Shown here piece after piece: positions 8,698 to 26,552 of a DNA stretch of 64,000 bases. Within the stretch, counting starts at the first letter, position 1, and every line of letters begins with the position of its first letter. The DNA comes from Patescibacteria group bacterium (GTDB lineage: Bacteria > Patescibacteriota > Minisyncoccia > Phycocordibacterales > JBBTRF01). The stretch lies in NCBI GenBank assembly GCA_038065315.1, contig JBBTRF010000001.1:464458-528457 (forward strand), given 5' to 3'. Made by a program: the position numbers and the translations under genes. A model generated the notes under the pieces. That model was not told the origin of the DNA. It made no database searches and saw only the letters and a list, made by a program, of their open reading frames with translations.

Positions 8698-8698
8698 G

Positions 8699-10531: not shown

Positions 10532-11728
10532 TTACTTAGTGATCTTGGTGACCACTCCTGCACCGACGGTTCGTCCGCCTTCTCGCACAGCAAATCGCAT
10601 CTTTTCCTCGAGTGCAATCGGCGCTACGAGCTTGACGATGAACTTCACGGTGTCTCCTGGCATAACCATTTCAGTGCCCGCAGCGAGGGTTACCTCACCG
10701 GTGACGTCTGTGGTTCGGATGTAGAACTGTGGCTTGTACCCATTGAAGAATGGAGTGTGTCGGCCACCTTCTTCCTTCTTGAGAACGTAGATTTCACCCT
10801 CGAAGTCGGTGTGAGGAGTGGTAGTACCTGGCTTTGCAAGTACCTGACCTCGGGTAACGTCTTCCTTTCGAGTACCTCGGAGGAGAACACCCGCGTTGTC
10901 ACCTGCCATACCTTCGCTGAGCTGCTTGTTGAACATTTCGATACCAGTGATGGTAGACTTTGCAGTCGGCTTGAGACCAATGATCTCAACTTCCTCGCCA
11001 ACCTTTGCGATTCCTCGCTCGATTCGGCCAGTAACCACAGTACCTCGTCCTTCAATAGAGAAGATGTCTTCGATTGGCATCAAGAATGGCTTGTCGATCT
11101 CACGCACTGGCATAGGGATATAGGTGTCGAGTGAGTTCAAAAGCTCATCGATCTTTGCAACCCATGCTGCATCGCCTTCGATCGCCTTCAAAGCTGAACC
11201 TCGAATCACTGGAGTACCCTTTCCGTCGAAACCATACTTCTCGAGAAGGTCTCGGATTTCTGCCTCAACGAGGTCGAGCATGTCCTTGTCATCCACCATG
11301 TCGCACTTGTTCAAGAAGACCACGATCTTTGGAACACCCACCTGCTTTGCGAGGAGAATGTGCTCTCGAGTCTGTGGCATTGGACCGTCTACCGCAGATA
11401 CCACGAGGATAGCGCCGTCCATCTGAGCGGCACCAGTGATCATGTTCTTGACGTAGTCAGCGTGACCTGGACAGTCGACGTGAGCGTAGTGTCGAGCCAC
11501 AGTTGAATACTCAACGTGTGAAATCGCAATGGTAATAATCTTTGAAGGGTCGCGTCGGCCGTCCTTTTCAGATGCCTTCGCTACCTGGTCGTATGCAATA
11601 GGATTTGCAAGACCTTTCTTTGACTGAACAACAGTAAGAGCCGCGGTAAGAGTAGTCTTGCCGTGGTCGACGTGTCCAATAGTACCGACGTTTACGTGAG
11701 GCTTTGATCGATCAAATGCTTCTGCCAT
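10532..11728 (-). CDS. tuf: Elongation factor Tu
   Basis: 398 aa with the [10 protein letters not shown] and DCPGHADY motifs; full-length EF-Tu. Confidence 0.97.
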
Positions 11729-11908
11729 ATATTTAATGAGTCCCTAATTCTCAAAGCTCAACGCGCGAGAGTGGCTGAGCCTTGTAACTTAAGAACAAAA
11801 ATTAATGATAATAAATCGTGTTAATACCAGGACGTTTCTTTTGATTCGAAACGGCCAAAGACGCAAAAAATGCGACAATGGGTATAGTAACAAATTGGCC
11901 GATAAAGT

Positions 11909-12022
11909 CAACCTTGGCGCACTGGCCGCCTCAGACACGCCGTAAATTTCTCCTGAAATTTCGGCTCCTCTCGGCGCCGTCGCGCCTGCGAGAGGTCTTC
12001 GTCAGCCAGTGCGCCAAGGTTG
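11909..12022. repeat. Nested-hairpin intergenic repeat, copy D (18-bp perfect outer inverted repeat caaccttggcgcactggc / gccagtgcgccaaggttg)
   Basis: Core: acgccgt + aaatttc-tcct-gaaattt + cggctcc + tctcggcgccgtcgcgcctgcgagag. Lies between the Phd-ParE toxin-antitoxin pair and tuf. Confidence 0.75.
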
Positions 12023-12056
12023 GTTTGATAGACATTTGTTGCTAGACCCGATTGTC

Positions 12057-12296
12057 TTAGAGGTGGTAGGTGGTGTCGTCGCGATTGGTGACATCGAGTA
12101 GAAAGATGTCGTCGTTGGTGAGGTGAAAGAGTATTCTGTATTGACCGGAACGCACTCTATAGATATCAAGGCCTCCTTTGAGCTTTTTCAGGTCGAGACC
12201 AACGAAGTTGCGCGATTTGATTTGAGCAATGATCAGCAGGATCCGTCCTCTTTGCTTTTCTTCCAGCTTGGCGAGGAATTTATCAATTTTGTGCAT
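12057..12296 (-). CDS. ParE/RelE-family type II toxin
   Basis: 79 aa with a RelE/ParE pattern (...YRVRSGQYRILFHLTNDDIFLLDVTNRDD.Y). Overlaps the upstream antitoxin gene by 14 nt. Confidence 0.8.
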   Translation of the reverse strand: MHKIDKFLAKLEEKQRGRILLIIAQIKSRNFVGLDLKKLKGGLDIYRVRSGQYRILFHLTNDDIFLLDVTNRDDTTYHL

Positions 12297-12531
12297 CGAG
12301 ACGCTTCAGGGAGGCAAGCACTTCATCGATATGCACCCCCTTTGGATCAATTTGAGTAAAATCCACCAATGTCTTCCACACCCCTTCGTCTCCCCACTCG
12401 TCGACGGGCACCATTTTGAATGCCGGTTTCGACTTTTTCACCACGACGAAAGACCGCCCTTTTTCTACTTCAGAAATATATTTTTCCATGTTCTCTCGCA
12501 GCTCTTTTAGGCCGATAATATTGGTTTTCAT
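12283..12531 (-). CDS. Phd/YefM-family type II antitoxin
   Basis: 82 aa beginning MKTNIIGLKELRENMEKYISEVEKGRSFVVVKKSKPAFKMVPV, a YefM/Phd fold pattern. Confidence 0.8.
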   Translation of the reverse strand: MKTNIIGLKELRENMEKYISEVEKGRSFVVVKKSKPAFKMVPVDEWGDEGVWKTLVDFTQIDPKGVHIDEVLASLKRLDAQN

Positions 12532-12534
12532 AGC

Positions 12535-12562
12535 ACAAGTTTATCTTAAGATAAACTTGTGT
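12535..12562. promoter_or_regulatory. 12-bp perfect palindrome (cacaagtttatc tta gataaacttgtg) 3 nt upstream of the Phd start codon; candidate toxin-antitoxin autoregulatory operator
   Basis: Read directly. Type II toxin-antitoxin promoters are classically repressed through palindromic operators. Confidence 0.5.
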
Positions 12563-12610
12563 CAACCAAGCCTGCCGTCGACAAAACAGACAAAGAAAGC
12601 ATATCAGAGT

Positions 12611-12665
12611 GGCGATAAAGAAACTGCTAAGAAATGTTCAAGAAAAAGCTAATTTTTGATAAAGA
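12611..12665. repeat. Bipartite A-rich repeat, copy 1: AGAAACTGCTAAGAAA-N18-TTTTTGATAAAGA
   Basis: The same two blocks with the same 18-nt spacing recur at 32986-33045. Confidence 0.55.
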
Positions 12666-12687
12666 TTCAACAAAGAAAGTCTAGGGG

Positions 12688-13431
12688 CTACTCCGCTGCA
12701 ACACCGCCCAAAAACACTTTGCTGAGCGTATCGCCCTTGATAATCTCGGCAGCAGGACCGGCAGCCACTACCCTACCCTTGTCGAGTACATAGGCACGAT
12801 GAGCAACTTCGAGAAGAGATTTGATATTGTGCTCCACCACCACGACAGCCATCTTGCGGCGCTGGTTGATCTCGAGGATCTTGGCGAACATTTCCTTCAC
12901 GATCTTCGGAGCAAGACCGAGCGACGGCTCATCGAGCAGGAGGATCTTTGGGTCGGTCATGAGGCCGCGGGCGATCGCGAGCATTTGCTGTTGGCCGCCG
13001 GAGAGATTGGAGGATTTTTCCGAGAGTCGGCTACGTAGTGCCGGGAACAGATCAAGCACCTGCTCGAGACGCTCGGCACGAATCTTTGCAGAAGCGACGG
13101 TCCAGCCGCCGAGTTCGATATTCTCACGGACGCTCAGATGTTTAAACACGCGGCGGCCTTGAGGGACAAATGAAATCCCTCGATGGATCACCTCATGCGA
13201 CACCGGCAAGAAGGTCTGCCCTTCCCAAGAGACCGATCCAGAGCTGATCGGCGCCAAGCCGAAGATCGCCTTGAGTACCGTTGACTTGCCGGCACCGTTT
13301 GGACCCATGAGCGCCACGATCTCGCCTTCATCTATAGACACCGAGGCACCATCAAGAGCCTTCACGCCACCGTAATGGACGTGTAGGTCGCGGGTTTCGA
13401 GAAGGATCTCTCTTTTTACATTATCGGCCAT
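12688..13431 (-). CDS. livF: Branched-chain amino acid ABC transporter ATP-binding protein LivF-like
   Basis: Walker A GPNGAGKST, the ABC signature LSGGQQQ and the Walker B motif LLLDEP. Start set at MADNVK. Confidence 0.85.
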   Translation of the reverse strand: MADNVKREILLETRDLHVHYGGVKALDGASVSIDEGEIVALMGPNGAGKSTVLKAIFGLAPISSGSVSWEGQTFLPVSHEVIHRGISFVPQGRRVFKHLSVRENIELGGWTVASAKIRAERLEQVLDLFPALRSRLSEKSSNLSGGQQQMLAIARGLMTDPKILLLDEPSLGLAPKIVKEMFAKILEINQRRKMAVVVVEHNIKSLLEVAHRAYVLDKGRVVAAGPAAEIIKGDTLSKVFLGGVAAE

Positions 13432-13488
13432 TACGCCTTCAATTCTATCATCGCGGGAGGATGAGGGCGAGCTACTAAACACCGAGCG

Positions 13489-14397
13489 TTAATTCACAGC
13501 CACAGGTTGACCATTCTTGACTTGCTTCAAGATCATTTCCCGCTTCGCCACACCGTTCTCATCAAAGAGACCGGATTTTGAGAGGCTGGATTGGACACAG
13601 ATAGTATCTGCTTTACATTCATCCACTGCTGAAGAGAGAATCTCTGCTGCTTGCTCAGAAAGACCGAACACGGCTCCTTCTCCCTCAGCAATATCTTTCG
13701 GGAAAGAATAAAAAACGTCCGGAACCAAAGTACGGACAACGGGAAGCTCAGCTACGTAAGTAGAGAAGACGGGTGCGACGACACCAAACTGCCTGAGCTT
13801 CGCGACCCCGCCAGCAAAGAAGAATGAAATATCTGGTGAGTAGATCACATCGGGCCTCGAAGCCTTGATCTTCGCCACTTCAGTGGAAATGTCGCCAGTA
13901 TCAGCACCAATCGCAACATGATAGACGATGTCACCCTTAAAATGAGCTCGGAAACTATCGACGTGCGTCTTCGAGAAGGCATTTTGATAGGAGACGAGAG
14001 CAACCCGCTTGTAGCCGCGACGGGTAAGCTCTTCCGCAATGAACTTTGATTCGTCTTCCAGAGAATACTGCACGTTGTAGAGGTTACCCCCGCTCGCTTC
14101 ATAGAGCGTCTTCGAAGCCGCCGATGGTACGAGCGCGAAGTAGTCACCCGCAAACTTCGACAACACTGCACCAATAAGGAAGCTCGCCGCCGCCGTGACC
14201 AGCGCCCCGACGAGCAGTGACAGGAAGAAATTCATCCCCGTGGTCGTGAGCAGGATGCCTGTCGCATAGGCACCGAGGCCGTAGAAGGCCGCGTGTGTCA
14301 CCGAGAGTAGGCCGGTATACCCCACCACCAAGTTGAGCGACAAACCCAAGATCCCGTAGATGCCGATGAGAATGAGGAGGTGAATGAGGTAGTCCAT
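13489..14397 (-). CDS. Chimeric ORF joining a LivM-like permease N-terminus (3 TM helices, through GDYFALV) to the C-terminal two-thirds of a LivK-like periplasmic binding protein
   Basis: N-terminal ~95 aa match the LivM family (MDYLIHLLILIGIYGILGLSLNLVVGYTGLLS...LSKFAGDYFALV). The remainder matches type-I periplasmic binding proteins (...YKRVALVSYQNAF...IKASRPDVIY...FDENG...). No livG gene is present. Confidence 0.6.
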   Translation of the reverse strand: MDYLIHLLILIGIYGILGLSLNLVVGYTGLLSVTHAAFYGLGAYATGILLTTTGMNFFLSLLVGALVTAAASFLIGAVLSKFAGDYFALVPSAASKTLYEASGGNLYNVQYSLEDESKFIAEELTRRGYKRVALVSYQNAFSKTHVDSFRAHFKGDIVYHVAIGADTGDISTEVAKIKASRPDVIYSPDISFFFAGGVAKLRQFGVVAPVFSTYVAELPVVRTLVPDVFYSFPKDIAEGEGAVFGLSEQAAEILSSAVDECKADTICVQSSLSKSGLFDENGVAKREMILKQVKNGQPVAVN

Positions 14398-14628
14398 GAT
14401 ATGCAGGCGCTTGTGCGCCTTTAATCATACCAAAAAAGGCGCTTGACTCATATTTTCGATTTTGCTAACATACTAACTGTGGTACCTCAGGGGCTTCCGG
14501 AAACGGGAGCCCCTTGAAGCTTCTAGTTGGGAAGATAATGTAGAGGCATAAAAAGACCCACCCGCCATTGCTGGCGGGTGGTAACATCTAACACTCTAAG
14601 TATCGCAAAACTGAATTGAAGTGTCAAT

Positions 14629-15496
14629 TTACTTCTTCAAAATCCCCTGCGGCCGGAAGAGCAGGAACAGGATAAGCACAGTGAAGGCAATCGCATCCTT
14701 CCACTCGCCGGAGATGTGCCAAATACCGAAGTTTTCGACAAAGCCGAGGAAAAAAGCGCCGAGTACGCCGCCGTAGATGTTGCCGATGCCGCCGATGATA
14801 CAGGCGATCACGCCTTTGAGGAGTAGCGACATGCCCATGGTCGGCTCAATGCCCGTATCGAAGCCGATGAGAATGCCGGCGAGGCCAGCGATCGCCGAAC
14901 CGATGAGAAACACCTTGCCGATGACTTTGTCAGTGTTGATGCCGACAATCTTGGAAACATCTTCATCGTCGCCCACAGCTCGTACCGCGCGGCCGAACAT
15001 TGTCTTTTTTGAGCACCAGCGCCAATCCGCTCATGATGACCAGTCCCGTCACGAGGATGACGAGCTGGATCTCCGTAATCACTCCCCCGAAGATGTCATA
15101 CACCCGCTGCGCTGAGGAGTTTTGCGAGAGCGTCTGGAATTGGCTGGTGAAGAGGATGGCGATAATGGCCTGCACTGCAGTGAAAGCCCCGAGCGAAGCC
15201 ACCATGAGCACCATGCTGGAGGATTTGCGAGCACGGAGGGGACGATAAACAAAGTGATTGATGAGTCCGCCCACCGCCGCCGCAATGACCACGCCAAGCA
15301 GCACCGCCAGCCACAGATCGAGGCCAAGCATTTTGTAGAAATAGAACACCGCGTAGCCGCCCACCGCAGTGAGCGCACCATAGCCGAGATCGAAGAACTT
15401 CACCGTCCCGAAGATGATATTGAATCCGAGCGCCAGCAGCGAATAGATCGCGCCGGCAATGATGCTGTTCAGGATGAGTTGTGGGAGGATGTCCAT
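14629..15496 (-). pseudogene. livH: livH-like permease disrupted by a frameshift near 14963-15000 at an A6/T6 run
   Basis: Two adjacent ORFs, 14963..15496 and 14629..15000, encode the N- and C-halves of LivH in different frames. The junction is ...VLKK/D... versus ...MFGRAVRAV... at the homopolymer ttttttga. Confidence 0.65.
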
Positions 15497-15511
15497 GTCT
15501 CAATAGTATAG

Positions 15512-15545
15512 CAAAAAACCGCTCGGAGGGAGCGGTTTTTTGCTC
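15512..15545. terminator. Hairpin aaaaaaccgctc-ggaggg-agcggtttttt, a bidirectional intrinsic terminator
   Basis: GC stem flanked by A and T runs, between the liv fragments. Confidence 0.55.
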
Positions 15546-15557
15546 ATTGAGGAAAAA

Positions 15558-16082
15558 TTACTTCGCGTCAACAAGTGCACCATCCTTGACCTGCATCATT
15601 CGCATACCGATACCGGTAACGTCACCATTCTCATCGAATCCAAAAGTTCCAGTAATCCCTGGAAAATCTTTAGTAGCATAGAGAGCCTGCTTGATCTTTT
15701 CAGTATCACTAGCCCCTACTTTTTCAAAGATGGTCGCTAGGAGATAGACCTCGTCATAAGCGTTTGCAGAAAAGAACGGATAGGTTGGTTCAGAGCTGTA
15801 ACGCTTCTTACTTTCCTGCAAGAAAGCGTTGGCTCGGGAGTTTTCAGAGCCAAGTGCCGGAGCATCCACAATATACGCACCTTCCACAGCCATGCCTGTC
15901 TTCACAAACTCAGGACCTGAGAAATATGCTGTGTAGAACTGAGACTTGATACCGAGTGTTCGAGCCTGTTCAGCCAGACGAGCACCGTCTGAACCAGTCT
16001 GGGTATCGATCAGGATCGCCTCATGGCGCGAGAAGCTCGGTATCATCATCGAGAGCCACGAGATCGCCGATGCCATGCGCAA
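15558..16082 (-). pseudogene. Truncated LivK-like substrate-binding protein (C-terminal ~150 aa only)
   Basis: ...ARLAEQARTLGIKSQFYTAYFSGPEF...TGTFGFDENGDVTG... matches the C-terminus of branched-chain amino-acid binding proteins. The N-terminal two-thirds and the signal peptide are absent. Confidence 0.6.
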
Positions 16083-16234
16083 AATCTACGAACTCGCCTG
16101 GGCCGAAGCAAAACGGCTTGACGCCGACCTACGCCTGAAACCATAGCCCTCATTGACACCCATCTCTTAAAAGAATAGGCTTTAAGGCGGATTTGAATCT
16201 GCACTGTTTTGAATCCAGAAAGGAGGCCGAAACT

Positions 16235-16636
16235 ATGTATCTGAATATTCGAGGAATCGAGAACGATCTCTACCCCGAGATTCCCTACTACCGCTTTGTT
16301 TGGGGGCCAGTGATAGAAAAAATGTTGGACTTCAAAGACGAAAAAACTCCCTTCCGCCTCAGAATGGCCAGCACTCACTATCGCGGTGCTTCGGAAAATA
16401 TCCCAGACGACACAGATATAAAGGTGCTTGTCTTTGCGGTTCGAGTTCTGATTGGCACTCCTGACCACTTCTGCTTCGGAGCCCACGTCATCAGCGGCTG
16501 GCCACCATACGAAGGCCGTGTGATTGAGGGCGGCATCATGGACGACGGAAGTGGACTGTTTGTCCTGACTACTCCAGATATCTACCTTCTCGCCGGCTTC
16601 GACCGGACCATAAATAGAGCCGTTTACACGGCCTGA
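16235..16636 (+). CDS. Hypothetical protein (133 aa), no recognisable domain
   Basis: GGAGG Shine-Dalgarno sequence 7 nt upstream of the ATG at 16235; followed by a hairpin plus T-run terminator. Convergent with the liv remnants and fusA. Confidence 0.5.
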   Translation: MYLNIRGIENDLYPEIPYYRFVWGPVIEKMLDFKDEKTPFRLRMASTHYRGASENIPDDTDIKVLVFAVRVLIGTPDHFCFGAHVISGWPPYEGRVIEGGIMDDGSGLFVLTTPDIYLLAGFDRTINRAVYTA

Positions 16637-16653
16637 TACATGGAGTTTTATCG

Positions 16654-16690
16654 CCCCGCAGCTCAGCCGCGGGGTTTTCTTTTGCAGTTT
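16654..16690 (+). terminator. Intrinsic terminator (ccccgcag...cgcgggg followed by ttttctttt)
   Basis: GC hairpin followed by a T-tract immediately after the 16235..16636 ORF. Confidence 0.6.
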
Positions 16691-16772
16691 CGTAATTCAG
16701 GAAAGGCAAAACCGCCTGTTGGCGAAGACCTCGCGCAACTGCAACGGCTCGATATTGACCGAGATATGTAAA

Positions 16773-16884
16773 GAAAACAAAAACACCTTCGGTGAAGACC
16801 TCTCGCAGCCACGTCGGTGGCGAGAGGAGCCAAAATCCTAGCAAGGATTTATGGCGTGTCTTCGACGAAGGTGTTTTTGTTTTC
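16773..16884. repeat. Nested-hairpin intergenic repeat, copy E (27-bp outer stem with 1 mismatch; opposite orientation to A and D); ends 2 nt before the fusA stop codon
   Basis: Arms gaaaacaaaaacaccttcggtgaagac and gtcttcgacgaaggtgtttttgttttc. The reverse complement of the core aligns with copy D (gacacgccat + aaaatcc-ttgcta-ggatttt + ggctcctctcgc...gcgagag). Confidence 0.75.
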
Positions 16885-16885
16885 T

Positions 16886-19030
16886 CTACTTCCTCGCTTC
16901 AATAATCTGCTGCTCCACAAACTTCGGCACCGGCGCGTAATGGTCGAATTCCATCGTCGCTGAACCCTGTCCTGAAGTCATAGATCGGAGCTGAGTAGTG
17001 TAACCGAACATTTCGGACAACGGCACCTTTGCGTGCATTACCTTGGCCTGACCGCGCTCGGTCATTTCTTCGATCGTACCTCGCTTTGAAGAAATGCTGC
17101 CGGTGATATCACCCATAAACTTCTCTGGGAACAATACCTCCACCTTCATGATTGGTTCCAAAATAACCGGCTTCGCACGCTTTGAGGCGCTCTGGAAGGC
17201 CAATGAACCGGCGATCTTGTACGCGATTTCAGATGAGTCGACATCGTGGTAGCTACCGAACGTCAATTCACAAGACACGTTCACCATGCGGTATCCGGCG
17301 ATAACACCTCGGTCCATCGCTTCGTGCACACCCTTCTCCACTGCAGGGATGAATTCGCCAGGGATCGCACCGCCCTTGATAGAGTTAATGAATTCGAAGT
17401 CGGCAAATCGGCTGACATTCTTCTTCACCTTCTCGCCTTCTTCCAACGGCTTCATCGGTCGGAGAGTGATGATAACGTGACCGTACTGACCCTTTCCTCC
17501 GGTCTGCTTGATGTACTTCTCTTCCGCCTCTGCCTCGCCCTGAATCGTCTCTCGATATGCCACCTGAGGCTTGCCGACGTTGGCCTCGACACCGAATTCT
17601 CGCTTCATACGATCCACCATGATTTCCAAGTGAAGTTCACCCATACCTGAGATGATCGTCTCGCCTGTTTCAGAGTTGGAACTGATCTTGAAAGTCGGAT
17701 CTTCATTTGCGAGCTTCTTCAAAGCCACGCCCATCTTTTCCTGGTCGGCCTTGGTCTTTGGCTCGACGCGCAACGACACCACTGGCTCCATGAACTTGAT
17801 CGCTTCGAGGATAACTGGATTTTCTTCGTCACAAAAGGTGTGCGAAGTAAGGGCGTCTTTGAGACCCACCGCAGCGGCAATCTCTCCGGCGTACACTTTC
17901 TTCACTTCCTCGCGCTCGTTGGCCTGGAGGCGCACGATACGACCCAATCGCTCGCGCTTGCCGGTGGTTGAGTTATACAAATACGTACCAGACTCCACAG
18001 TACCCGAGTACACGCGGAAGAAAGTCAGTTGCCCAACAAAAGGATCGTTCTGGAGTTTGAAGGCCAAGGCACAGAAAGGTTCCTCATCTGAAGGCTTGCG
18101 GAAGATGTGGTCACCCGTGTTTGGATCAATGCCTCGTACCGGGGGAAGGTCAAGGGGAGATGGAAGATAATCAACGACGGCGTCCAATACGAGCTGCACA
18201 CCCACATTCTTGAGCGCAGAACCAGTAAACACTGGGAAGATCTTTCCAGCAAGCACCGCCTTTCGGACCACTCGCTTGATCTCATCGATCGAGATCTCCT
18301 TCCCTTCCAAATATGCCGACATGGTCGCCTCATCGTATTCTGCCACTCGGTCAATGAGTTCAGCTCGATACTTCTTTGCATCTTCGAGCATGTCTGCAGG
18401 AATCTCCTGTTCAATAATCTTAATACCCTTCTCACCTTCGAAGGTGTAGGCCTTCATCTTCACGAGGTCGACAACACCACGATGATCACCCTCCAAGCCA
18501 ATAGGCAGCTGGAATCGGATCGCATTTTTGTTCAATCGCTCGAGAATAGAGGCATATGAGCGCTCAAAAGACGCGCCGGTTCGGTCCATTTTGTTGATGA
18601 AGCAAAGTCGAGGAACATTGCTTTCGTCGGCATAGCGCCAGTTGGTCTCAGACTGTGGCTCTACTCCCGCCACGCCGTCGAATACCACCACAGCACCGTC
18701 GAGTACTCTGAGAGAACGCTTCACTTCTACGGTAAAGTCGATGTGCCCTGGAGTGTCAATGATGTTGAAACGCACCTTCTTTGAAACATCCTCCTTTGGC
18801 ATGTAGGTAGGGTTCCAGAAACAGGTGATCGCCGCGGCGGTAATAGTAATACCTCGCTCTCGCTCCTGCTCCATCCAGTCGGTAGTGGTCTCGCCCTCGT
18901 GCACCTCGCCGATCTTGTGGATCATACCTGTGTAGTACAGGATTCGCTCTGATGTGGTGGTTTTTCCCGCATCAATGTGCGCGATAATGCCGAAATTACG
19001 TACTTTTTCGAGTGGATAGTCTCTGTTCAT
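16886..19030 (-). CDS. fusA: Elongation factor G
   Basis: 714 aa with AHIDAGKTT, DTPGHIDF and the EF-G domains IV and V; full length. Confidence 0.97.
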   Translation of the reverse strand: MNRDYPLEKVRNFGIIAHIDAGKTTTSERILYYTGMIHKIGEVHEGETTTDWMEQERERGITITAAAITCFWNPTYMPKEDVSKKVRFNIIDTPGHIDFTVEVKRSLRVLDGAVVVFDGVAGVEPQSETNWRYADESNVPRLCFINKMDRTGASFERSYASILERLNKNAIRFQLPIGLEGDHRGVVDLVKMKAYTFEGEKGIKIIEQEIPADMLEDAKKYRAELIDRVAEYDEATMSAYLEGKEISIDEIKRVVRKAVLAGKIFPVFTGSALKNVGVQLVLDAVVDYLPSPLDLPPVRGIDPNTGDHIFRKPSDEEPFCALAFKLQNDPFVGQLTFFRVYSGTVESGTYLYNSTTGKRERLGRIVRLQANEREEVKKVYAGEIAAAVGLKDALTSHTFCDEENPVILEAIKFMEPVVSLRVEPKTKADQEKMGVALKKLANEDPTFKISSNSETGETIISGMGELHLEIMVDRMKREFGVEANVGKPQVAYRETIQGEAEAEEKYIKQTGGKGQYGHVIITLRPMKPLEEGEKVKKNVSRFADFEFINSIKGGAIPGEFIPAVEKGVHEAMDRGVIAGYRMVNVSCELTFGSYHDVDSSEIAYKIAGSLAFQSASKRAKPVILEPIMKVEVLFPEKFMGDITGSISSKRGTIEEMTERGQAKVMHAKVPLSEMFGYTTQLRSMTSGQGSATMEFDHYAPVPKFVEQQIIEARK

Positions 19031-19915: not shown

Positions 19916-19917
19916 AG

Positions 19918-21720
19918 CTATTGTTGTGGATCAGAAGGGCTGAAAGGATTCGCGACGATTACCGTGCGCGTCGAGGTTGCGGCATTGCCAGATAGATCAG
20001 TCGCTACGTAGGTAATGATGTAGTTTCCGACGGCGGCGGTGTCGATTTGATCACCCGAAACAACAACGGAGAGATTGTTGTCCCGATTGTCGGCCACGAG
20101 TGCACCAAGATCGGAATACACTGCACCGACCAGAAGGTTGGCTGGATTGTTTCCTTGGATGGTGATTGTCGGGGGCTCAATATCGGGTGCCAAGACCAGC
20201 GCAGGAGCGTCAACTACAGCAGGAGAGGTCGAGGAGATACTCGTACCGCCATAGCTTCGGAGAAGTGCCTTGAGCTGCTCTTTCTCTATGCACACATCAT
20301 CGACACATAGACGCTGGCTGACACGAAGTGTATCGGAAGTTGGGACAGAGACGGAAGATAGGGTGTTGTTTCGGATCGAATTGATCTGCGCTTGCTGCTC
20401 TTGGATTGCCCTTACGAGAACTGGGGTTAATTCTTCATACCGAACACCTCGAGGGGTAATGCCGTCAATTTCAGTAAATATCAGTCTTGAATCGACGCGT
20501 GCCACCTCTTCCGCAATGAAACCGAAGCGGGACTCATTGTTGCTATTTGAATTAAACGTGATCGGCCGCAGCTGGCCGATGAGAGTAAGAGCTGGACCAT
20601 CAAACGTCTCTATGTTGTGTTTGAAGCGAGCAGAAGAAACAGTGCAATTGGTGGCACCCGTGTTCACTAAAATTTCCTTTGTCGACGCATTAATACAGAC
20701 CGCGTCCGAAGTCGCACTTGCTAGAGTCAAGCCATCTACGGCCATCGACCCCACCACTGAAAGTGTCTTCCAAGGAGAAGTGCTGGCAACGCCCACTCTT
20801 CGGCTCCAGGACGGCACCGCGCCGGCGCCATCTGACTCTGCATACACGGTGAAAAGCGAGTTGCCGTCGATCCTAGCCGAGTAACTCTCGACCGTGCTGG
20901 AAGCGGCAGTGGCAGTGATGGGCATATCGATCCAGGCAACAATCCCGGCGTTGGTATCAAAGGTCATTGGACCAACCTGAAGATCGTCCACCGAGGTGAC
21001 GCCGCTCGAAAAATCATACTGAAAGGATCCGCCGCCAACAGAGAGACCTCCCGATAACGTGGAAGTAGCGGTAGTTGAAGTGGCGCTTAAATTGCGGAAA
21101 ACTCCCTCGCCTATCACAGAGAGCTTCGCGTAGGGAGAGGTGGTGCCAATGCCAATATTTCCCGCCTGACTCACAAACAGACTCGAAGTCGCCGTCAGCG
21201 TCGTCCCCGAGCCGTTGTAGAAAGGAAACTGACCTTGGGTGCCTGAATTCACCGTCCCAGACCCACCGCTTCCGGAAATACAAGTACCTCCCACAGCGAA
21301 GCAACCGGCAGCCAGATTAATGCCGCCAGTTCCGTAAAAAGTCGTGGTAGCAGTAGTAAAATTAGCCAAGCTCCCGATGGAAAGAATGCTCCCAGGCGTG
21401 GTGGTACCGATACCGACGTATCCACCGGAATTAACAATGAAATCGGTCTGCGTGGAAGATCCAATCGCAAAAGATGGCCCGCTGATGCCACTCGGATTGA
21501 TAGAAAACAAACCCCACGGCGAGGTGGTAGAGACACCGAAATTCCCAGACGCAGTTGAAGCATTCACCTGGAGCACAATACAACTAGCATTAGTCGGCGC
21601 ACAGCCTGGATCCAGTGTTTCGCCCGGCGCAAATGAGGCGGAAACGCTCGATGGGAGGGCGAAAAAAGAAACAGATGCACTGAAACAAACAAACGCGCTT
21701 GTGAAAAGAAAGCGTCTCAT
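19918..21720 (-). CDS. Secreted Gly/Thr/Ser-rich fibre-like protein with an internal peptidase-S74 intramolecular-chaperone domain followed by a C-terminal DUF5011-type Ig-like domain
   Basis: Signal peptide and (G.IGIGTT.P...L.V.G)-type repeats. The S74 motif is ...ARFKHNIETFDGPALTLIGQLRPITFNSN...GFIAEEVARVDSRLIFTEIDGITPRGVRYEELTPVLVRAIQEQQAQIN, and the C-terminal ~130 aa match DUF5011 (...VVSGDQIDTAAVGNYIITYVATDLSGNAATSTRTVIV). Confidence 0.7.
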   Translation of the reverse strand: MRRFLFTSAFVCFSASVSFFALPSSVSASFAPGETLDPGCAPTNASCIVLQVNASTASGNFGVSTTSPWGLFSINPSGISGPSFAIGSSTQTDFIVNSGGYVGIGTTTPGSILSIGSLANFTTATTTFYGTGGINLAAGCFAVGGTCISGSGGSGTVNSGTQGQFPFYNGSGTTLTATSSLFVSQAGNIGIGTTSPYAKLSVIGEGVFRNLSATSTTATSTLSGGLSVGGGSFQYDFSSGVTSVDDLQVGPMTFDTNAGIVAWIDMPITATAASSTVESYSARIDGNSLFTVYAESDGAGAVPSWSRRVGVASTSPWKTLSVVGSMAVDGLTLASATSDAVCINASTKEILVNTGATNCTVSSARFKHNIETFDGPALTLIGQLRPITFNSNSNNESRFGFIAEEVARVDSRLIFTEIDGITPRGVRYEELTPVLVRAIQEQQAQINSIRNNTLSSVSVPTSDTLRVSQRLCVDDVCIEKEQLKALLRSYGGTSISSTSPAVVDAPALVLAPDIEPPTITIQGNNPANLLVGAVYSDLGALVADNRDNNLSVVVSGDQIDTAAVGNYIITYVATDLSGNAATSTRTVIVANPFSPSDPQQ

Positions 21721-21732
21721 GGATGCGGTTAA

Positions 21733-23679
21733 TTATAGCACGACCTTTTCTTCGATCACGCCGTTTTTTGCCAAAAATACGGGCGATGTGTGGACAAGAG
21801 TATATGTCTCGTCGGGATTTTTCTTCTCCACCGTGAGGTAGTACTCGCCCGGCGGCACCAAGGCATAGAAATGGCCGAGACGGTCTGTCACTTTGTGTAG
21901 TAACTCTTGGTTTGGGCCGGCAATATATACGCGGATGATCGCAAAGGCAATTGGCAAATCCGTGGAGCTATCCATCACGCTGGCAAATGCCTTTTTCTTG
22001 GCACCAAAGATTCTCAAGAGGAGTAGGCAAACATAGAGAGCGAAGATGGCGATGTTGTATGGAGCCGGTGCTGCCCAGAATGCAAGGACGGCCACGAAAA
22101 AGCCGACGGAGAAGGAAGCGTCGGTGATGCGCTTTTTGATGAGGTCGCGCTTCGAGTAAAAACGCGAAATCTGCTGTTGTGATTTAGCAAATTCATTCCA
22201 ATCGAAATTCACGGGGTCCAGCGGGATGTTTTTGATGAGTACTCCGCCCGCTTCCAAGGCAGTGATCGGTTCACCGAAATAAAGGTCTGAGTAGAGCTCA
22301 TCCGCCATCTTTCCGGCCAATTTCTTCGAGGGAAATGTGTAGTTGGTCTTGTTGGCGACCATGGTGTATGTGCCGGACGCGAGCAAGAAGCCATAGCGGC
22401 CATCGAGGTCGGTAATCGACGTATTGACCTCGTTCCCCTTCTCATCTTGCAAGACCACGTACGCGGGGTCGAGCGGCTGCTTGGTAACGCTGTCATACAC
22501 AGTACCCCACGGACGAGAACGTTTTTTCAGGCCAAAAGCCCCGAGCAAGATTCCCCACAATCGGAGTGGGATGAGAAACAGCTCGGAAAATGACAGCGGG
22601 TTCAAGAAAAGCGATGAAACGCTGGCCGCACCCGCGCCGACCACGCCCGCCGTCGACACCGTCTTGGTCACCACCGAGCCAGTTGGACTCTGGATCACTT
22701 CTTTTGTCTCCTCCGCCACAACCTTTACCGTCTCTTGGGCGAATTCATAGCTTTGCTTTACCTGCTCGACAGCACCGGAGACGATTTGCGTGACCGCACC
22801 TCCTCCGCCGCCACCGCCACTCGAACCGGAGCCTGAACCTGAAGAGCCGCTACTACCGCTATCACCACCAAAAAAGTTGGCGATGCTCGAAAAGACACTA
22901 TCGACAGTCGCGGCCACGGACTCGACGGCCGACTCAACCACCGATGGAGTTTCTGCCTCGGCCGGAGGGGCTTCAGATGGAGTATCTTCTGGTGGCGCCA
23001 CATCGGGAGCTGGCGCCGGAGACTCTGCCGGAGCTTCAGATGGTGCCGGTGAGGACTCCGCCGCTGGCGCAGACGACTCTGAAGAAGAGCTACTAGATTC
23101 TCCGCTACTGCTCGAGCTTGAACTCGAACCTGATCCGGAACCACCACCCCCTCCGCCGCCACCACCACCGCCGCCACCTGAAGAAGCACCGCGAACGCTC
23201 GCAGGGCGCCAATCTGTGGCCACATTAAATGAACCCGAGCCGCAGGTGCTGTTTGTGCTGCAATTAAACACGATCCAGCCAGTGTTTTGACCCCAAGCGT
23301 AGCCGGAAAAGACTCCCGAAGAGCTGATCACGACTCGAACACCGCTGGCGGATGGATGGAAATTAATCCAGCCAGTGTTTTGGCCCCAAGCGTAGCCGGA
23401 AAGATTGCCGCTACCGTCATTTACCACCCCGTAGCCAGTCGGATTAAGGTTGATCCAGCCATAGTAGTCGCTCCACACGTAGCCGGTCATCGCGCTGTCG
23501 GTGACGTGCACATCTCCTTCCGTCGTGCCGAAATTGAACGTACCGAAATTGGTATCAACGGCCTTGGCATAGAAATTTCCTGGCTCAATGATGCCGTTGG
23601 TGTCTGAGGCGTGCACAGAAATCGAGCCAGACGAAAGGATAGACAGCACAACCAAAAGAAAGAGGGCGACTCTTGTCAT
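21733..23679 (-). CDS. Secreted/membrane-anchored repeat protein: three GYAWGQNTGWINF-type repeats, a Gly13/Ser-rich low-complexity linker, two TM helices each followed by a carboxypeptidase-regulatory-like beta-sandwich
   Basis: Repeats GYVWSDYYGWINLNP, GYAWGQNTGWINFHP and GYAWGQNTGWIVFNC; a (GGN)13 codon run at 23137-23176; two hydrophobic helices; CarboxypepD_reg-like segments (...GTVYDSVTKQPLDPAYVVLQDEKGNEV...DLDGRYGF...). Confidence 0.65.
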   Translation of the reverse strand: MTRVALFLLVVLSILSSGSISVHASDTNGIIEPGNFYAKAVDTNFGTFNFGTTEGDVHVTDSAMTGYVWSDYYGWINLNPTGYGVVNDGSGNLSGYAWGQNTGWINFHPSASGVRVVISSSGVFSGYAWGQNTGWIVFNCSTNSTCGSGSFNVATDWRPASVRGASSGGGGGGGGGGGGGSGSGSSSSSSSSGESSSSSSESSAPAAESSPAPSEAPAESPAPAPDVAPPEDTPSEAPPAEAETPSVVESAVESVAATVDSVFSSIANFFGGDSGSSGSSGSGSGSSGGGGGGGAVTQIVSGAVEQVKQSYEFAQETVKVVAEETKEVIQSPTGSVVTKTVSTAGVVGAGAASVSSLFLNPLSFSELFLIPLRLWGILLGAFGLKKRSRPWGTVYDSVTKQPLDPAYVVLQDEKGNEVNTSITDLDGRYGFLLASGTYTMVANKTNYTFPSKKLAGKMADELYSDLYFGEPITALEAGGVLIKNIPLDPVNFDWNEFAKSQQQISRFYSKRDLIKKRITDASFSVGFFVAVLAFWAAPAPYNIAIFALYVCLLLLRIFGAKKKAFASVMDSSTDLPIAFAIIRVYIAGPNQELLHKVTDRLGHFYALVPPGEYYLTVEKKNPDETYTLVHTSPVFLAKNGVIEEKVVL

Positions 23680-23741
23680 ACTTCCCTATTCTACCGCGCT
23701 ACTGCAAAATGCGGAACGGATATCTCGCTAGCAGCAAAAAA

Positions 23742-24272
23742 CTAGAACCCACTGAACATTGCCATCATCATCCACATAAACAAAATGACGCAGAGGATGA
23801 TCACCCCTGGAGAAAGTCGGCCGCCGCGCTTCAAAAGTGGGCTGTTCTCACGCTCGAGGCAAGTGAGTACGATTACAAATGAAGAGAATGCGATGACCGC
23901 GAGAGAGCTGAGTGATTTATAGAGAATTGCTTTATCGGTAATAATCTCCCAAATGCTACAGACCCCGAGAAATGCGAGAAGAACGGCCGAAACGATGAGA
24001 GCGCCGAGAGTGGCAATGCGCACAATCCTGAAGGTCGGATTTGGCACCGCGGGAACAGGAGGGTTCAGAGGATCTACCGCCTCTCCGCCGCCAACAAAAC
24101 GCCCGGCCACCATCACTACCACTGCAACAACGGCCAAAATACCGAGGGTCGCAAATGATTTCGAAATAACCTCTTTGTTAAAAACGTCCCAAACCCCAAG
24201 AATAGAAATGAGGGACAGGACACTCACGGCTCCAATAAAGATTCCCGAAGCGATATTTTGAATGGTTTTCAT
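23742..24272 (-). CDS. Small integral membrane protein with an internal tandem duplication (2 x 2 TM)
   Basis: The two halves align (IASGIFIGAVSVLSLISILGVWDVFNKEVISKSF... versus IATLGALIVSAVLLAFLGVCSIWEIITDKAILYKSL...). Start set at MKTIQN. Confidence 0.55.
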   Translation of the reverse strand: MKTIQNIASGIFIGAVSVLSLISILGVWDVFNKEVISKSFATLGILAVVAVVVMVAGRFVGGGEAVDPLNPPVPAVPNPTFRIVRIATLGALIVSAVLLAFLGVCSIWEIITDKAILYKSLSSLAVIAFSSFVIVLTCLERENSPLLKRGGRLSPGVIILCVILFMWMMMAMFSGF

Positions 24273-24607
24273 AAAGGAAATTGTACGTCGGTACCCGGAA
24301 ATTGGCAATGGAAAGAAAAACGGACACCTTTCGGCGTAATGTGGGGATACGCAGGTGTCCGTCGGTTAGAAGAAAGAAGAAACAGTAGGGTTGGTTTCGT
24401 CGGGTTCCTTTTTTCTGTTAACTCTCAAGTCGTCGCCCGAGCGCAAAAGCATCAGGTCCGACCTGCCTATAGGTGTACAAGGCCTCGGAAGATATTCCGC
24501 CACGTCGGCCACATCACAACCAAAGGTTGTGGCCTTTTTCTCCCTTGCCATCTTGCAACCCACTCAATCTTGGCCTTTCAGCGCCGATTTGTCAAAATTT
24601 CTGACAA

Positions 24608-24874
24608 CTAGCCCCACAAGTCGCTATGCGTACCCACGTCGACAAGCAAGTAGAAGGAGTTTTCAATCTCCCTGTATAGTATTCGATAGTCGCCAGTTGC
24701 GTTGATACTGCGACAATCCTTGTTTCTGCCTAATAATTTATGATTGTTGAGAATCGGACTGAATTCATCTTGCACGAAAATTCTGAGCCGATCCGAGACC
24801 TTCTCCCGGATCTTGAGTGGCAGTTTTCTGAAGTGCCGTTCGAATTCCGATGATCTAATAATAGTAACTGCCAT
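24608..24874 (-). CDS. YafQ/RelE-family type II toxin (mRNA interferase)
   Basis: 88 aa ending ...GRNKDCRSINATGDYRILYREIENSFYLLVDVGTHSDLWG, a YafQ-like C-terminal catalytic region. Confidence 0.8.
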   Translation of the reverse strand: MAVTIIRSSEFERHFRKLPLKIREKVSDRLRIFVQDEFSPILNNHKLLGRNKDCRSINATGDYRILYREIENSFYLLVDVGTHSDLWG

Positions 24875-24889
24875 TTCGAAAGAACAGAA

Positions 24890-25162
24890 TTAGGAGTTAA
24901 GATCAGCCAAAAGGTCTTCGATATCGGTGAACTTCTTCAACTTTCCTGAAGCGAGCTCCTTTTCCGCAATCTCGATAGACCGAAGAAGTCTTCGTGTCGG
25001 TCGAAGATTCATCGAGAAAGACACCTCCTTCGTGCGCACAAATTGCCTCAAATACGCATTTACGATCGTACCAAGCTGAAAACCGAGCTCCTCAGCTGTT
25101 TTTTGAGCAGCTACCTTCAATCTTTTATCTACTTTTGTTGTCATAAGCGTAGTAGTATTCAT
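24890..25162 (-). CDS. DinJ/RelB-family antitoxin
   Basis: 90 aa starting at the internal Met MNTTTLMTTKVDKRLKVAAQKTAEELGFQLGTIVNAYLRQFV..., a DinJ pattern. The listed ORF's 5' extension, which overlaps a repeat and a terminator, was rejected. Confidence 0.8.
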   Translation of the reverse strand: MNTTTLMTTKVDKRLKVAAQKTAEELGFQLGTIVNAYLRQFVRTKEVSFSMNLRPTRRLLRSIEIAEKELASGKLKKFTDIEDLLADLNS

Positions 25163-25176
25163 ATACCAAAGTATAT

Positions 25177-25190
25177 ACCTAGGTATAGTA
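25177..25190. promoter_or_regulatory. 14-bp perfect palindrome tatacctaggtata upstream of the DinJ-YafQ operon; candidate operator
   Basis: Read directly; lies 15 nt upstream of the antitoxin start. Confidence 0.45.
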
Positions 25191-25204
25191 TCTGTCAACA
25201 AAGA

Positions 25205-25230
25205 AAAAACCGCTTCCCAGCGGTTTTTTC
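25205..25230. terminator. Bidirectional intrinsic terminator aaaaaaccgc-ttccca-gcggtttttt
   Basis: GC stem with an A-run on one side and a T-run on the other, downstream of rpsG. Confidence 0.7.
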
Positions 25231-25248
25231 TAATCGCGGAGAGGAGCT

Positions 25249-25328
25249 TTTTCAAAGGGACTGCGGAGCGCGACTGGCGCGAGCCGGAGCAAAATTTCAC
25301 CAGAAATTTATGCGTACCCTTTGAAAAA
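25249..25328. repeat. Nested-hairpin intergenic repeat, copy B (12-bp outer stem tttttcaaaggg / ccctttgaaaaa; same orientation as C and E)
   Basis: Core actgcggagcgcgactggcgcgagccggagc + aaatttc-acca-gaaattt + atgcgtaccc, near-identical to copy C at 39297 apart from compensatory hairpin changes. Confidence 0.75.
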
Positions 25329-25340
25329 CTCCTTGTAGCG

Positions 25341-25811
25341 CTACCAAGCGAAGTGCGCAAACGCCTTGTTGGCCTCTGCCATCTTGTGAGTGTTCTCACG
25401 CTTCTTCACGGCCTCGCCTTCGTTCTTCATGGCGAGCATGATCTCTTCCGCGAGCTTCAAGTGCATTGGCTTGCCCTTCTTCGCTCGAGCAGCATCAACA
25501 ATCCACTTGATCGAGAGCGCCTGTCGTCGGTCTGGTCGGACTTCGATTGGTACCTGATAGTTGGCGCCTCCCACACGACGAGATTTCACCTCCACCATCG
25601 GTGCAGTGTTCTTCAGCGCGTTCTCAAAATACTCCAAAGGATTTTCTACCTTAGCAGTCTCCTTGATAGTGTCGAATGCTCCGTACACAATCTTTCGAGC
25701 GGCATTCTTCTTACCTCGCTCCATACAATAGTTGATCAACTTCCCTACTTTCTGGGAGCTGTACACGCTGTCAGGGGATACGATATTACGATTTTTGGCT
25801 TTTCGTCTCAT
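25341..25811 (-). CDS. rpsG: 30S ribosomal protein S7
   Basis: 156 aa; canonical S7 ([35 protein letters not shown]...). Confidence 0.95.
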
Positions 25812-25822
25812 TGGAGTATGGA

Positions 25823-26239
25823 TTATTTAGCGGCTTTTGGCTTCTTCATACCGTATTGGCTTCGACCCTTTCGTCGTGTTTCTACACCACCTGAGTCGAG
25901 CACGCCTCGAACAATAGTGTATCGGAGACCGACATCCTTTACTCGTCCGCCTCGGAGAAGTACCACTGAGTGTTCCTGGAGGTTGTGGCCGATACCTGGG
26001 ATGTATGCGGTGACTTCCATACCGTTGGTAAGTCGCACTCGGGCGATCTTGCGGATCGCTGAGTTTGGCTTCTTTGGAGTCTTGGTCGTAACCTTGACGC
26101 ATACTCCTCGCTTAAATGGCGAGTAGAAGAATCGAGGCTTGTTCTTGAGCGTATTGAAGCTCTTGGTCAAGGCGATCGCCTTTGACTTTCGGTAGAGCTT
26201 GACTCGCTTGCGGCGCACCAATTGATTGATGGTTGGCAT
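25823..26239 (-). CDS. rpsL: 30S ribosomal protein S12
   Basis: Start set at [12 protein letters not shown]; motifs ...[10 protein letters not shown]... and ...[17 protein letters not shown]... Confidence 0.95.
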
Positions 26240-26552
26240 AGTGAAATGCAAATAAATAAACCGATTTTAATAATGACGATGATTAAATTCTGCTTCGCCG
26301 CGCGGAGATCTGTGTGGCTTCACCCTTTGCTTCCGAGGATTACTCACAGATTCCTGATGGTTGTGGCTGAATTATGAAGCTTTTTGGAGCTTGGCGAGCT
26401 CAGGCGAACCTGTTGGGCCGCGCTTTGCTCCGAGAAAAGCGTCCCCGTACTCTACTATAGAGAGGGGTTTTGCGCAAATATAACGCCTTGAACCCCCCTG
26501 AAACACGGCAAGAGCGTTACGCGAGGAGGCGCGCGGTGTTTTTGAGTAGGTG

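Follow-up and report, generated by a model that had tools for sequence, protein, structure and literature searches.

In the 64,000-nt stretch of contig JBBTRF010000001.1 analysed here (the window), the str-S10-spc superoperon of ribosomal-protein and elongation-factor genes is split by three islands of other genes, and copies of a structured palindromic element of about 110 nt lie at most of the island boundaries. The superoperon is likely a chain of conserved blocks joined by permissive junctions, at which cargo has been acquired stepwise and has decayed, each block being a separate transcription unit and the boundary hairpins belonging to a dispersed repeat family. The ribosomal-protein superoperon is a textbook case of conserved gene order, and the binning and placement of genomes of the candidate phyla radiation (CPR) with 16-protein marker sets take its contiguity for granted. 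The window belongs to a co-assembled metagenome-assembled genome (MAG) from Hainich groundwater, and its nearest genomes are those of the Paceibacteria/Parcubacteria within the CPR. The literature was searched, and neither the split operon nor the repeat was found to be described for CPR bacteria.

Gene map of the split superoperon

Genes were identified with NCBIfam equivalog models, and the domains of the cargo proteins with Pfam. The conserved blocks of the superoperon were located as follows.

25823-26239, minus strand: rpsL (ribosomal protein S12; TIGR00981, 185 bits), with the start codon as called on an identical contig
25341-25811, minus strand: rpsG (ribosomal protein S7; TIGR01029, 198 bits), the end of conserved block 1
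16886-19030, minus strand: fusA, encoding canonical elongation factor G (EF-G; TIGR00484, 1062 bits against a cut-off of 659), conserved block 2
10532-11728, minus strand: tuf, encoding elongation factor Tu (EF-Tu; NCBIfam equivalog model)
10098-10487, minus strand: rpsJ (NCBIfam equivalog model)
7529-10057, minus strand: rplC, rplD, rplW and rplB, downstream of rpsJ
7529-8377, minus strand: rplB
7529-11728, minus strand: conserved block 3 (tuf, rpsJ, rplC, rplD, rplW, rplB), with spacers of 20-122 nt
4824-5195, minus strand: rpsS
227-5195, minus strand: conserved block 4, uninterrupted (rpsS, rplV, rpsC, rplP, rpmC, rpsQ, rplN, rplX, rplE, rpsN, rpsH, rplF)

The genes rpsL, rpsG, fusA and tuf were all present in canonical order on one strand, and the spacer between rpsL and rpsG was 11 nt. 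Adjacency was lost at two points of the str operon, with gaps of 6,310 bp between rpsG and fusA (island I) and of 5,157 bp between fusA and tuf (island II), and a third interruption of 2,333 bp separated rplB from rpsS (island III). The initial annotation had described a str order interrupted twice, with all segments on one strand. Both breaks are borne out by the curated models and the gap lengths, which agree, and all segments lie on the minus strand; the third break, between rplB and rpsS, had been overlooked. The size of 6.3 kb given for the rpsG-fusA island (19031-25340) matches the measured length. For the fusA-tuf gap, the coordinates (11729-16885) and the reported contents hold, since decayed liv genes, a Phd/ParE-like toxin-antitoxin pair and repeats were found there, but the size of 4.7 kb does not; two repeat arms in this gap lie 4,793 bp apart, and the smaller figure is read here as that distance. 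The superoperon of Escherichia coli and Bacillus subtilis has the same gene set, order and strand (rpsL-rpsG-fusA-tuf-rpsJ-rplCDWB-rpsS and onwards), whereas that of the window is interrupted three times. The rpsJ open reading frame (ORF) runs 26 codons upstream of the S10 domain (10487-10410), giving 129 aa against the usual ~103 aa, and the long form is also called on related contigs.

The split is not an assembly artefact, because independent assemblies are colinear with the window and the breakpoints recur in two congeneric species taken together. The NCBI MAG contig CAYHFM010000002.1 and assemblies made from single samples of wells H52 and H41 at Hainich were colinear with the window at 99.8-100% identity over the junctions that each spanned, and the EF-G, EF-Tu and S7 proteins were identical on these separately assembled contigs. 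Two edges, that of island I towards fusA and that of island III towards rpsS, were covered only by the MAG contig or the window itself. The window being a co-assembled MAG that carries long palindromes able to mislead assemblers, a chimera of assembly or binning might be suspected. At least four independent single-sample assemblies from two wells nevertheless cross all the other island edges. Two congeneric species assembled by other groups, moreover, jointly carry all three breakpoints together with the same repeats, locus L213 showing the first two and locus L209 the third and, of the second, its tuf side. The probability of a chimera is thus practically negligible. All population contigs were colinear with the window, and presence/absence polymorphism of the islands was not seen among them.

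Permissive junctions in the Paceibacteria

Ribosomal genes were located by tblastn in 80 species-level genomes fetched around fusA, with 60-85% identity to the EF-G of the window. Among the junctions, four were open repeatedly. The rpsG|fusA junction had a median length of 244 bp and exceeded 1 kb in 14 of 64 loci, with a maximum of 7.4 kb. The fusA|tuf junction had a median of 1.7 kb and exceeded 1 kb in 30 of 51 loci, and in 8 more no tuf was met within 10 kb. Lengths above 1 kb were also found at rpsJ|rplC (11 of 47) and rplB|rpsS (9 of 27). Thirteen other junctions, including rpsL|rpsG, tuf|rpsJ, rplC|rplD, rplW|rplB, rpsS|rplV and rpsQ|rplN, never exceeded 1 kb; rplE|rpsN and rpsH|rplF did so in 2 of 4 and 1 of 9 loci, respectively, these being small samples. 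Across species, the gaps ranged from 9 bp to more than 10 kb.

The 285 ORFs found in the slots fell into 258 clusters, of which 237 were singletons, and 71% of the ORFs were co-directional with the operon. Their Pfam domains included those of toxin-antitoxin proteins (HepT/MNT, YafQ, HicA, PIN, RelB, ParE and DUF4258/DUF2283), metabolic enzymes, and pilin-like and Ig-domain proteins. The initial annotation had held that a split universal in the clade would mean an old, fixed arrangement. This applies to the positions of the junctions but not to their contents, given the predominance of singleton clusters. Since the positions are shared clade-wide and the contents differ, the arrangement is one of old permissiveness with ongoing turnover, not a frozen layout.

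Relative to E. coli, the open junctions fall inside the str and S10 operons and not at operon boundaries, and tuf|rpsJ and rpsQ|rplN stay closed throughout. In its blocks the layout is similar to that of archaea, where S10 accompanies EF-1alpha and L3 opens the following unit. The slots also resemble integration hot spots and other variable slots (genomic islets, defence islands), where different accessory genes occupy the same inter-core positions in different lineages; they differ in lying inside the most conserved and highly expressed gene cluster and in having no integrases or tRNA targets.

Among 216 slot ORFs (L002-L081), one IS200-type Y1 transposase, one reverse transcriptase, one PD-(D/E)XK nuclease and two ORF6N proteins were recorded. 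Two giant ORFs, of 2,829 aa (L017, 12317-20806, fusA|tuf slot) and 2,010 aa (L047, 3750-9782, rpsG|fusA slot), clustered together by BLAST.

Contents of the islands and their turnover within the genus

The islands of the window were compared with the corresponding slots of three congeneric genomes, L213, L215 and L209, whose tuf genes are ~91-92% identical to that of the window at the nucleotide level; their branching order came without resolution. Island I contains the following genes.

24890-25162, minus strand: relB (TIGR02384, 35.7, below the cut-off of 45.65), the start of island I
24608-24874, minus strand: relE (TIGR02385, 28.8 against a cut-off of 27.9)
23742-24272, minus strand: 176-aa multi-pass membrane protein
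21733-23679, minus strand: p648, a 648-aa surface protein with a CarboxypepD_reg domain (Pfam)
19918-21720, minus strand: 600-aa protein with Peptidase_S74 and Ig-like domains (Pfam)
19103-19915, minus strand: p270, a 270-aa protein with a Laminin_G_3 domain (Pfam)

The four cargo genes at 19103-24272 encode secreted or membrane proteins, with signal-peptide-like N-termini, and the genes are spaced by -4 to 72 nt. In L213, rpsL-rpsG is followed by a 173-aa gene, a p648 homologue and an S74/Ig protein of 1659 aa, and then by fusA; RelBE and p270 of the window are absent from this slot. A p648 homologue also follows rpsG in L215, so that homologues of the island I cargo adjoin rpsG in both species.

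Island II is occupied mainly by a decayed ABC transporter cluster of the liv type, which spans 12688-16082 on the minus strand.

16235-16636, plus strand: conserved gene on the opposite strand, called on identical contigs (a 104-aa protein lies in the same place in L213)
~16640-16682, plus strand: terminator-like hairpin of this gene
15558-16082, minus strand: C-terminal fragment of a liv substrate-binding protein
14963-15496 and 14629-15000, minus strand: frameshifted liv permease
13489-14397, minus strand: chimera of the first 89 residues of a permease and a binding-protein fragment
12688-13431, minus strand: livF-like ATPase, intact
12538-12565, minus strand: promoter-like site accompanying the Phd/ParE pair
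12283-12531, minus strand: Phd antitoxin (TIGR01552, 29.3 against a cut-off of 20.8)
12057-12296, minus strand: ParE-like toxin (weak Pfam match, E=0.006), the end of island II

This cluster does not amount to a functional importer of the Liv/HAAT type, as livF alone remains intact, the permeases carry frameshifts or truncations, livG is missing and the binding proteins are fragmentary. The same slot of L209 holds an intact liv cluster that exceeds 11 kb and is made up of four binding proteins, permeases, TrmB, livG, DUF5343 and livF; relative to it, more than 7 kb is deleted in the window, leaving permease residues 1-89 and fragments. In L213, where fusA is followed by the opposite-strand ORF, the Phd-toxin pair and tuf, liv DNA is wholly absent, and the 3.5 kb of additional DNA in the window lies exactly between the opposite-strand ORF and phd. 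Homologous liv clusters were found elsewhere in Taylorbacteria, and livF homologues are common in the clade. A foreign origin of the liv genes was ruled out by livF homologues with 70-78% identity across the Paceibacteria and by the intact orthologous cluster in the slot of the sister species.

The type II toxin-antitoxin genes of islands I and II form adjacent pairs, with RelE and Phd scoring above and RelB and ParE below the model cut-offs. The pair architecture is kept in L209 and L213, in both of which the Phd/toxin pair stands upstream of tuf.

The following features were found in island III.

6541-7461, minus strand: APH-family kinase
6233-6505, minus strand: orphan relB with no toxin partner
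6036-6173: second large hairpin, different from the element described below, downstream of the orphan relB
5446-5940, plus strand: NYN-domain gene

The kinase and relB of the window are reduced in L209, whose island III retains only NYN and a 123-nt relB remnant. A defence-island reading was rejected, since PADLOC gave weak matches only (NYN and the kinase). In the hairpin at 6036-6173, arms of 21 bp with 95% complementarity enclose 96 nt with approximately three small hairpins (-61.7 kcal/mol, z -6.7), and a TTGACC...TATATG promoter-like site precedes it. It scores only 17 bits with the model of the element and may belong to another repeat or small-RNA family.

The islands I, II and III are neither recent nor unique to the window genome, because they are common to the congeneric L213, L215 and L209. 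Their contents differ among these genomes, which supports the view that the slots gain and lose DNA independently in each lineage, and thus repeated insertion at old, shared breakpoints. The contrasting explanation is that the split arose once and has merely been inherited, with nothing being inserted now. The islands do occur at the same junctions in the congeneric genomes, with orthologues of the Phd/ParE pair, the opposite-strand ORF, the p648-family gene and four boundary repeats; these junction positions are also open class-wide, and the population contigs show no presence/absence polymorphism. Within the genus, however, the slot contents differ (0, 3.5 or >11 kb of liv DNA; RelBE, p270 and APH/RelB; an S74 protein of 600 or 1659 aa), and outside it the cargo is unrelated by clustering and tblastn and the gap lengths vary widely. 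A fixed, inherited layout is accordingly improbable.

Operon fission by rearrangement, in which the blocks themselves would have been translocated or inverted beside pre-existing genes, was also considered. Both the liv cluster and genes of the p648 family are native to the clade and found elsewhere in other genomes, with p648 homologues upstream of rpsL in L044 and L046, as such a history would predict. A real rearrangement of the superoperon, rather than an insertion, is present in L079 (Taylorbacteria; 7527-14167), where rpsN-rpsH-rplF come 3.3 kb after fusA and tuf and the whole S10 block are missing between them. Apart from exceptions such as L079, block order and strand are canonical in the window and the great majority of its relatives, with spacing alone varying, and comparison within the genus shows colinear flanks, with differences in the form of clean indels in the slots. 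The data thus already fit an ancestral order of blocks with change limited to what the slots contain. Fission is for these reasons very improbable.

Repeated insertion into a conserved superoperon, which the initial annotation had proposed as the most likely explanation, remains the best reading and is supported by the synteny with relatives. It is amended in three respects: the islands are not recent or unique, their content is still changing by nested gain and decay, and their positions are not idiosyncratic.

Structure and copies of the boundary element

The element was found by a repeat search, in which the fusA-tuf gap proved to be flanked by two inverted, mutually similar palindromes, with a similar one upstream of rpsS. 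A first covariance model, made from these three copies, retrieved one further copy beside pilC, another immediately behind rpsG (five in all) and 12 foreign copies. A second model (R2), built from the 12 foreign copies only, recovered all five copies of the window (E 2e-21 to 7.5e-12) and 20 copies in 15 of the 80 species loci. The copies in the window are given below.

25234-25341, plus strand: copy E, overlapping the rpsG stop codon and antisense to rpsG (R2 60.5 bits, E=7.5e-12)
16772-16885, plus strand: copy A, starting at the fusA stop codon and antisense to fusA (R2 99.8 bits)
11909-12022, minus strand: copy B, sense, upstream of tuf, its last 3 nt beginning the -35 box (R2 101.3 bits)
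5228-5340, minus strand: copy C, sense, upstream of rpsS (R2 78.6 bits)
39289-39398, plus strand: copy D, outside the superoperon, filling the spacer between a 135-aa ORF and the pilC stop codon (R2 76.5 bits)
7478-7535: core-less remnant, an inverted repeat forming a plain 27-bp hairpin over the rplB stop codon, with a core of ~71 nt missing

The element is ~110 nt long and consists of a closing stem of 15-43 bp, whose sequence differs completely between copies, and an enclosed conserved core of two hairpins, whose sequence signatures TTGCGCAG...CGAGCAGAGCA are shared across genera. In an alignment of 25 copies, 89.9% of the cells were paired, compared with 52% for shuffled partners and 44-52% for slid controls, and compensatory double changes occurred at all 41 modelled pairs. 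Folding without an alignment gave a closing stem (median 24 bp) and exactly two hairpins in 99 of 108 distinct copies, with a median z of -7.1. The modelled (sense) strand was the more stable one in 99 of 101 copies (p=5e-18); G-U pairs numbered 256 against 66. An exact-pattern scan of metagenomes for one core subtype matched at least 120 stretches, and the 80 loci listed yielded 83 full elements.

In the window, only tRNAs reached the gathering score of Rfam 15. Copies A and B had no Rfam overlap at E up to 10, except for a 17-bit PreQ1-III match lying partly over copy A (E=6, gathering score 63). A known RNA family, ribozyme or riboswitch was therefore ruled out, as was an independent small-RNA gene with its own promoter, since neither a conserved 5'-flank motif nor a promoter at a fixed distance was present in 99 copies. 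No match to the element was found on viral contigs, and carriage by phages was rejected. Taken together, the covariation and the folding make the boundary repeat a well-supported new structured element that is missing from Rfam.

Copy E folds into a three-way junction (-49.6 kcal/mol, z -4.7). Its orthologues occupy the same place and orientation in L213 and L215, and family copies stand directly after rpsG, in antisense, in L005, L069 and L154. Copy A (-71 to -73 kcal/mol, z -10 to -13) has an orthologous copy after fusA in L213 and a family copy after fusA in L002, and copy B (-75.9 kcal/mol) has orthologues in L209 and L213 and a family copy upstream of tuf in L047. Copy C (-81.1 kcal/mol, z -11) has an L209 orthologue with a core 93% conserved and arms ~60% conserved, and a family copy upstream of rpsS in L003. 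For copy D (-73.4 kcal/mol), the neighbouring PilC was identified by Pfam T2SSF. L209 carries a full element between the same outer arms as the hairpin at the rplB stop codon.

Overall, the orthologous copies in L209, L213 and L215 keep their position and orientation, with arms 59-82% and cores 69-94% identical. Hypermutation of the arms was set aside, as neutral divergence with selection, or arm-to-arm conversion, for pairing is sufficient. The arms of copy A are orthologous to those of the L213 copy (82%), whereas its core is of another subtype and 95% identical to the L209 copy upstream of tuf. This combination indicates conversion between element copies.

Predicted transcription units

The sequence points to each conserved block being its own transcription unit, with the islands insulated from the blocks. 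A long hairpin element would close each block, once next to a canonical terminator, and the tuf and rpsS blocks would restart from a sigma-70-like promoter directly after the element. The signals predicted by consensus were as follows.

25202-25231, minus strand: terminator-like hairpin, followed by the relBE promoter-like site at 25170-25198 (TTGACA-17-TATACT), both being consensus matches only
11884-11911, minus strand: promoter-like site for tuf (TTGACT-16-TACTAT), with the -35 box kept in L209 and the same layout in L047
5204-5231, minus strand: promoter-like site for rpsS (TTGACA-16-TAAGAT), kept in L209, its -35 box overlapping the 3' end of copy C

The boxes directly 3' of copies B and C thus share the form TTGAC[AT]-N16-TAnnAT, which is kept in L209 and recurs in the same layout in L047 and L003. 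Between p270 and fusA no terminator was predicted and the island I genes are tightly spaced, so fusA is probably transcribed together with the surface-protein operon of island I. The ATG of the 176-aa membrane protein comes 8 nt after the end of a promoter-like site (TTGCCA-17-TACAAT, 24272-24308), which suggests that the island-I/fusA unit is transcribed with no leader or almost none.

Distribution of the element and relation to known repeats

Of the six island boundaries, four carry the element (copies E, A, B and C) and a fifth carries the core-less remnant at rplB. On both sides of islands II and III the copies are inverted relative to each other, with their 3' ends facing away from the island, and copies after rplB or before rpsS occur in other genera as well (L003, L038, L050, L069 and L132). 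Most copies begin at a distance of 0-15 nt from the preceding stop codon and lie antisense to the gene that it ends (31:9 in tandem contexts), and the folding strand was the C-rich strand in 45 of 59 cases. Copies also separate housekeeping genes (dnaX, dus, ftsQ, serS, pilC). The locus L096 has a copy at 1983-2092 inside the ORF 1772-2827, probably in-frame within the dihydrouridine synthase gene (the Dus match takes up 332 residues per 306 profile positions), and two further copies that separate dus, ftsQ and serS.

The element was compared with known repeats. REP/BIME, ERIC, the Correia elements of Neisseria and the RPE of Rickettsia likewise occur as many dispersed intergenic copies of ~100 nt and form long hairpins, usually just past stop codons or between convergent genes. 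Some Correia elements have promoter boxes at their ends, as observed here, and RPE sits inside genes, for which the dus copy is a candidate parallel. The folding of the present element is, in contrast to all four, strongly strand-asymmetric. REP/BIME is a palindrome of 20-40 nt with a GTAG or CGTC head, whereas the element is ~110 nt long with no conserved head motif. A RAYT partner was sought among the 216 slot ORFs of other genomes, not in whole genomes, and one IS200-like Y1 gene was found, with no link to the element copies; we know of no partner transposase for the element. Like elements of the MITE type (miniature transposable elements with inverted repeats), the element has many dispersed, patchy copies, five of them in the 64-kb window alone. 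MITE-type elements, however, have conserved terminal repeats, while here the arms of A, B, C, D and E are unrelated and the internal core is conserved. No target-site duplication was found, the flanks of 25 copies showing stem extensions (inverted repeats) and not direct repeats, and no flank motif was conserved in 99 copies. As for intrinsic terminators, many arms are A-rich at the 5' and U-rich at the 3' side; yet canonical terminators stand beside copy E and two copies of L069 (L069b, L069c), and the better-folding strand is usually the antisense one.

The likeness to the attC sites of integrons is closer, and element-mediated cassette capture, in which the palindrome, folded as a single strand, would act as the site of recombination and the islands would be cassettes acquired in this way, was weighed in this light. 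An attC site is likewise an imperfect palindrome (57-141 nt) that lies next to a stop codon and folds on the strand antisense to the ORF, and integron cassettes are likewise variable, often orphan, rich in toxin-antitoxin genes and co-directional. The element matches in size, position and folding strand; its arms vary in sequence while the structure stays, recombination takes place between its copies, toxin-antitoxin pairs and orphan genes abound in the mostly co-directional cargo, and inverted copies with outward 3' ends flank islands II and III. In attC, however, the R'' (RYYYAAC) and R' (GTTRRRY) motifs lie at the outer ends and the centre is variable, which is the opposite of the conserved centre seen here, and no R''/R'-type motif was found at the ends or flanks of the element. 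Integrons form regular ORF-site-ORF arrays, whereas here there is no such array: the copies lie between core genes, separate housekeeping genes and do not follow every cargo gene, and they show no enrichment in slots. Neither IntI nor another recombinase domain was found in the scanned ORFs of the window and islands, which are part of the window ORFs. Cassette capture by the element is, on balance, quite improbable. A broader proposal, that the element is a working part of an undescribed CPR system, either a single-strand recombination site or a mobile insulator-promoter module, by which these minimal genomes would insert variable cargo (toxin-antitoxin pairs, surface proteins, transporters) at set slots of the operon they express most highly and exchange it again, is conceivable though unlikely.

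Proposed history of the superoperon

The distribution and the gene map are consistent with a superoperon built as a chain of tightly coupled blocks (rpsL-rpsG; fusA; tuf-rpsJ; rplC-rplD-rplW-rplB; rpsS onwards) that would be joined by a few permissive junctions. In this genus, three of the junctions would have opened and been filled stepwise with DNA mostly from the same clade, namely toxin-antitoxin pairs, a surface-protein operon, a native liv cluster, a kinase and a nuclease, with subsequent decay by deletion. Toxin-antitoxin addiction may help to retain cargo once it has landed. The repeat family appears to colonise intergenic spacers genome-wide, with exchange of sequence between copies. 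The repeats could plausibly serve as insulators or as RNA 3'-end structures, and possibly also as substrates for illegitimate or ectopic recombination that moves cargo in and out; recombination of this kind at the palindromes is a reasonable inference because conversion of a core was observed.

Several observations weigh against this history. Because the trio of the window, L209 and L213 is not resolved, gain of liv is not separable from loss of liv in L213. The promoters and terminators are consensus matches only. The element was not enriched in the slots of the superoperon, being present in 10 of 246 slots compared with 7 of 315 other spacers of at least 100 nt (p=0.22, 79 species loci), and among the metagenomic matches listed it was near ribosomal genes in only 5 of 76 loci. 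These two results rule out specificity for ribosomal junctions, so that the element is a dispersed general intergenic repeat and not one specific to the str operon, and its presence at the island boundaries may merely reflect the space available there. The structure is selected on the strand that is mostly antisense to the preceding gene, which argues against a simple role as terminator or stabiliser of the 3' untranslated region; this strand paradox leaves a function as single-stranded DNA or antisense RNA open. No integrase, transposase, att-type direct repeat or target-site duplication was found at any island edge. Marks of a mobile-element origin were likewise rejected, with no tRNAs nearby, no integrase or transposase domains in the island ORFs and no flanking direct repeats, and the islands had no compositional signature, their G+C content not being distinct.

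The stepwise filling of permissive junctions is still the reading we prefer. With it, a whole class would tolerate kilobases of unrelated cargo with fast turnover at four fixed junctions of the superoperon, which shows where the real coupling constraints lie. In streamlined genomes of less than 1 Mb, the slots may be a main route by which surface-protein and toxin-antitoxin genes are tried out beside strong promoters. The boundary repeat, which Rfam lacks, is backed by 108 distinct copies, by compensatory changes at all the modelled pairs, by folding that favours one strand and by sequence exchange among the copies.

Other features near the superoperon

Between folD and rpsL (26544-26612), a hairpin with 26-bp arms and a 17-nt loop was found, which might be another core-less remnant of the element. 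A separate terminator-like hairpin is located at 26646-26669, and folD is absent from this position in L213. Further away, the region is flanked by competence genes of the ComEC type (31512-32960) and by the type IV pilus pair pilB-pilC (39399-42401).

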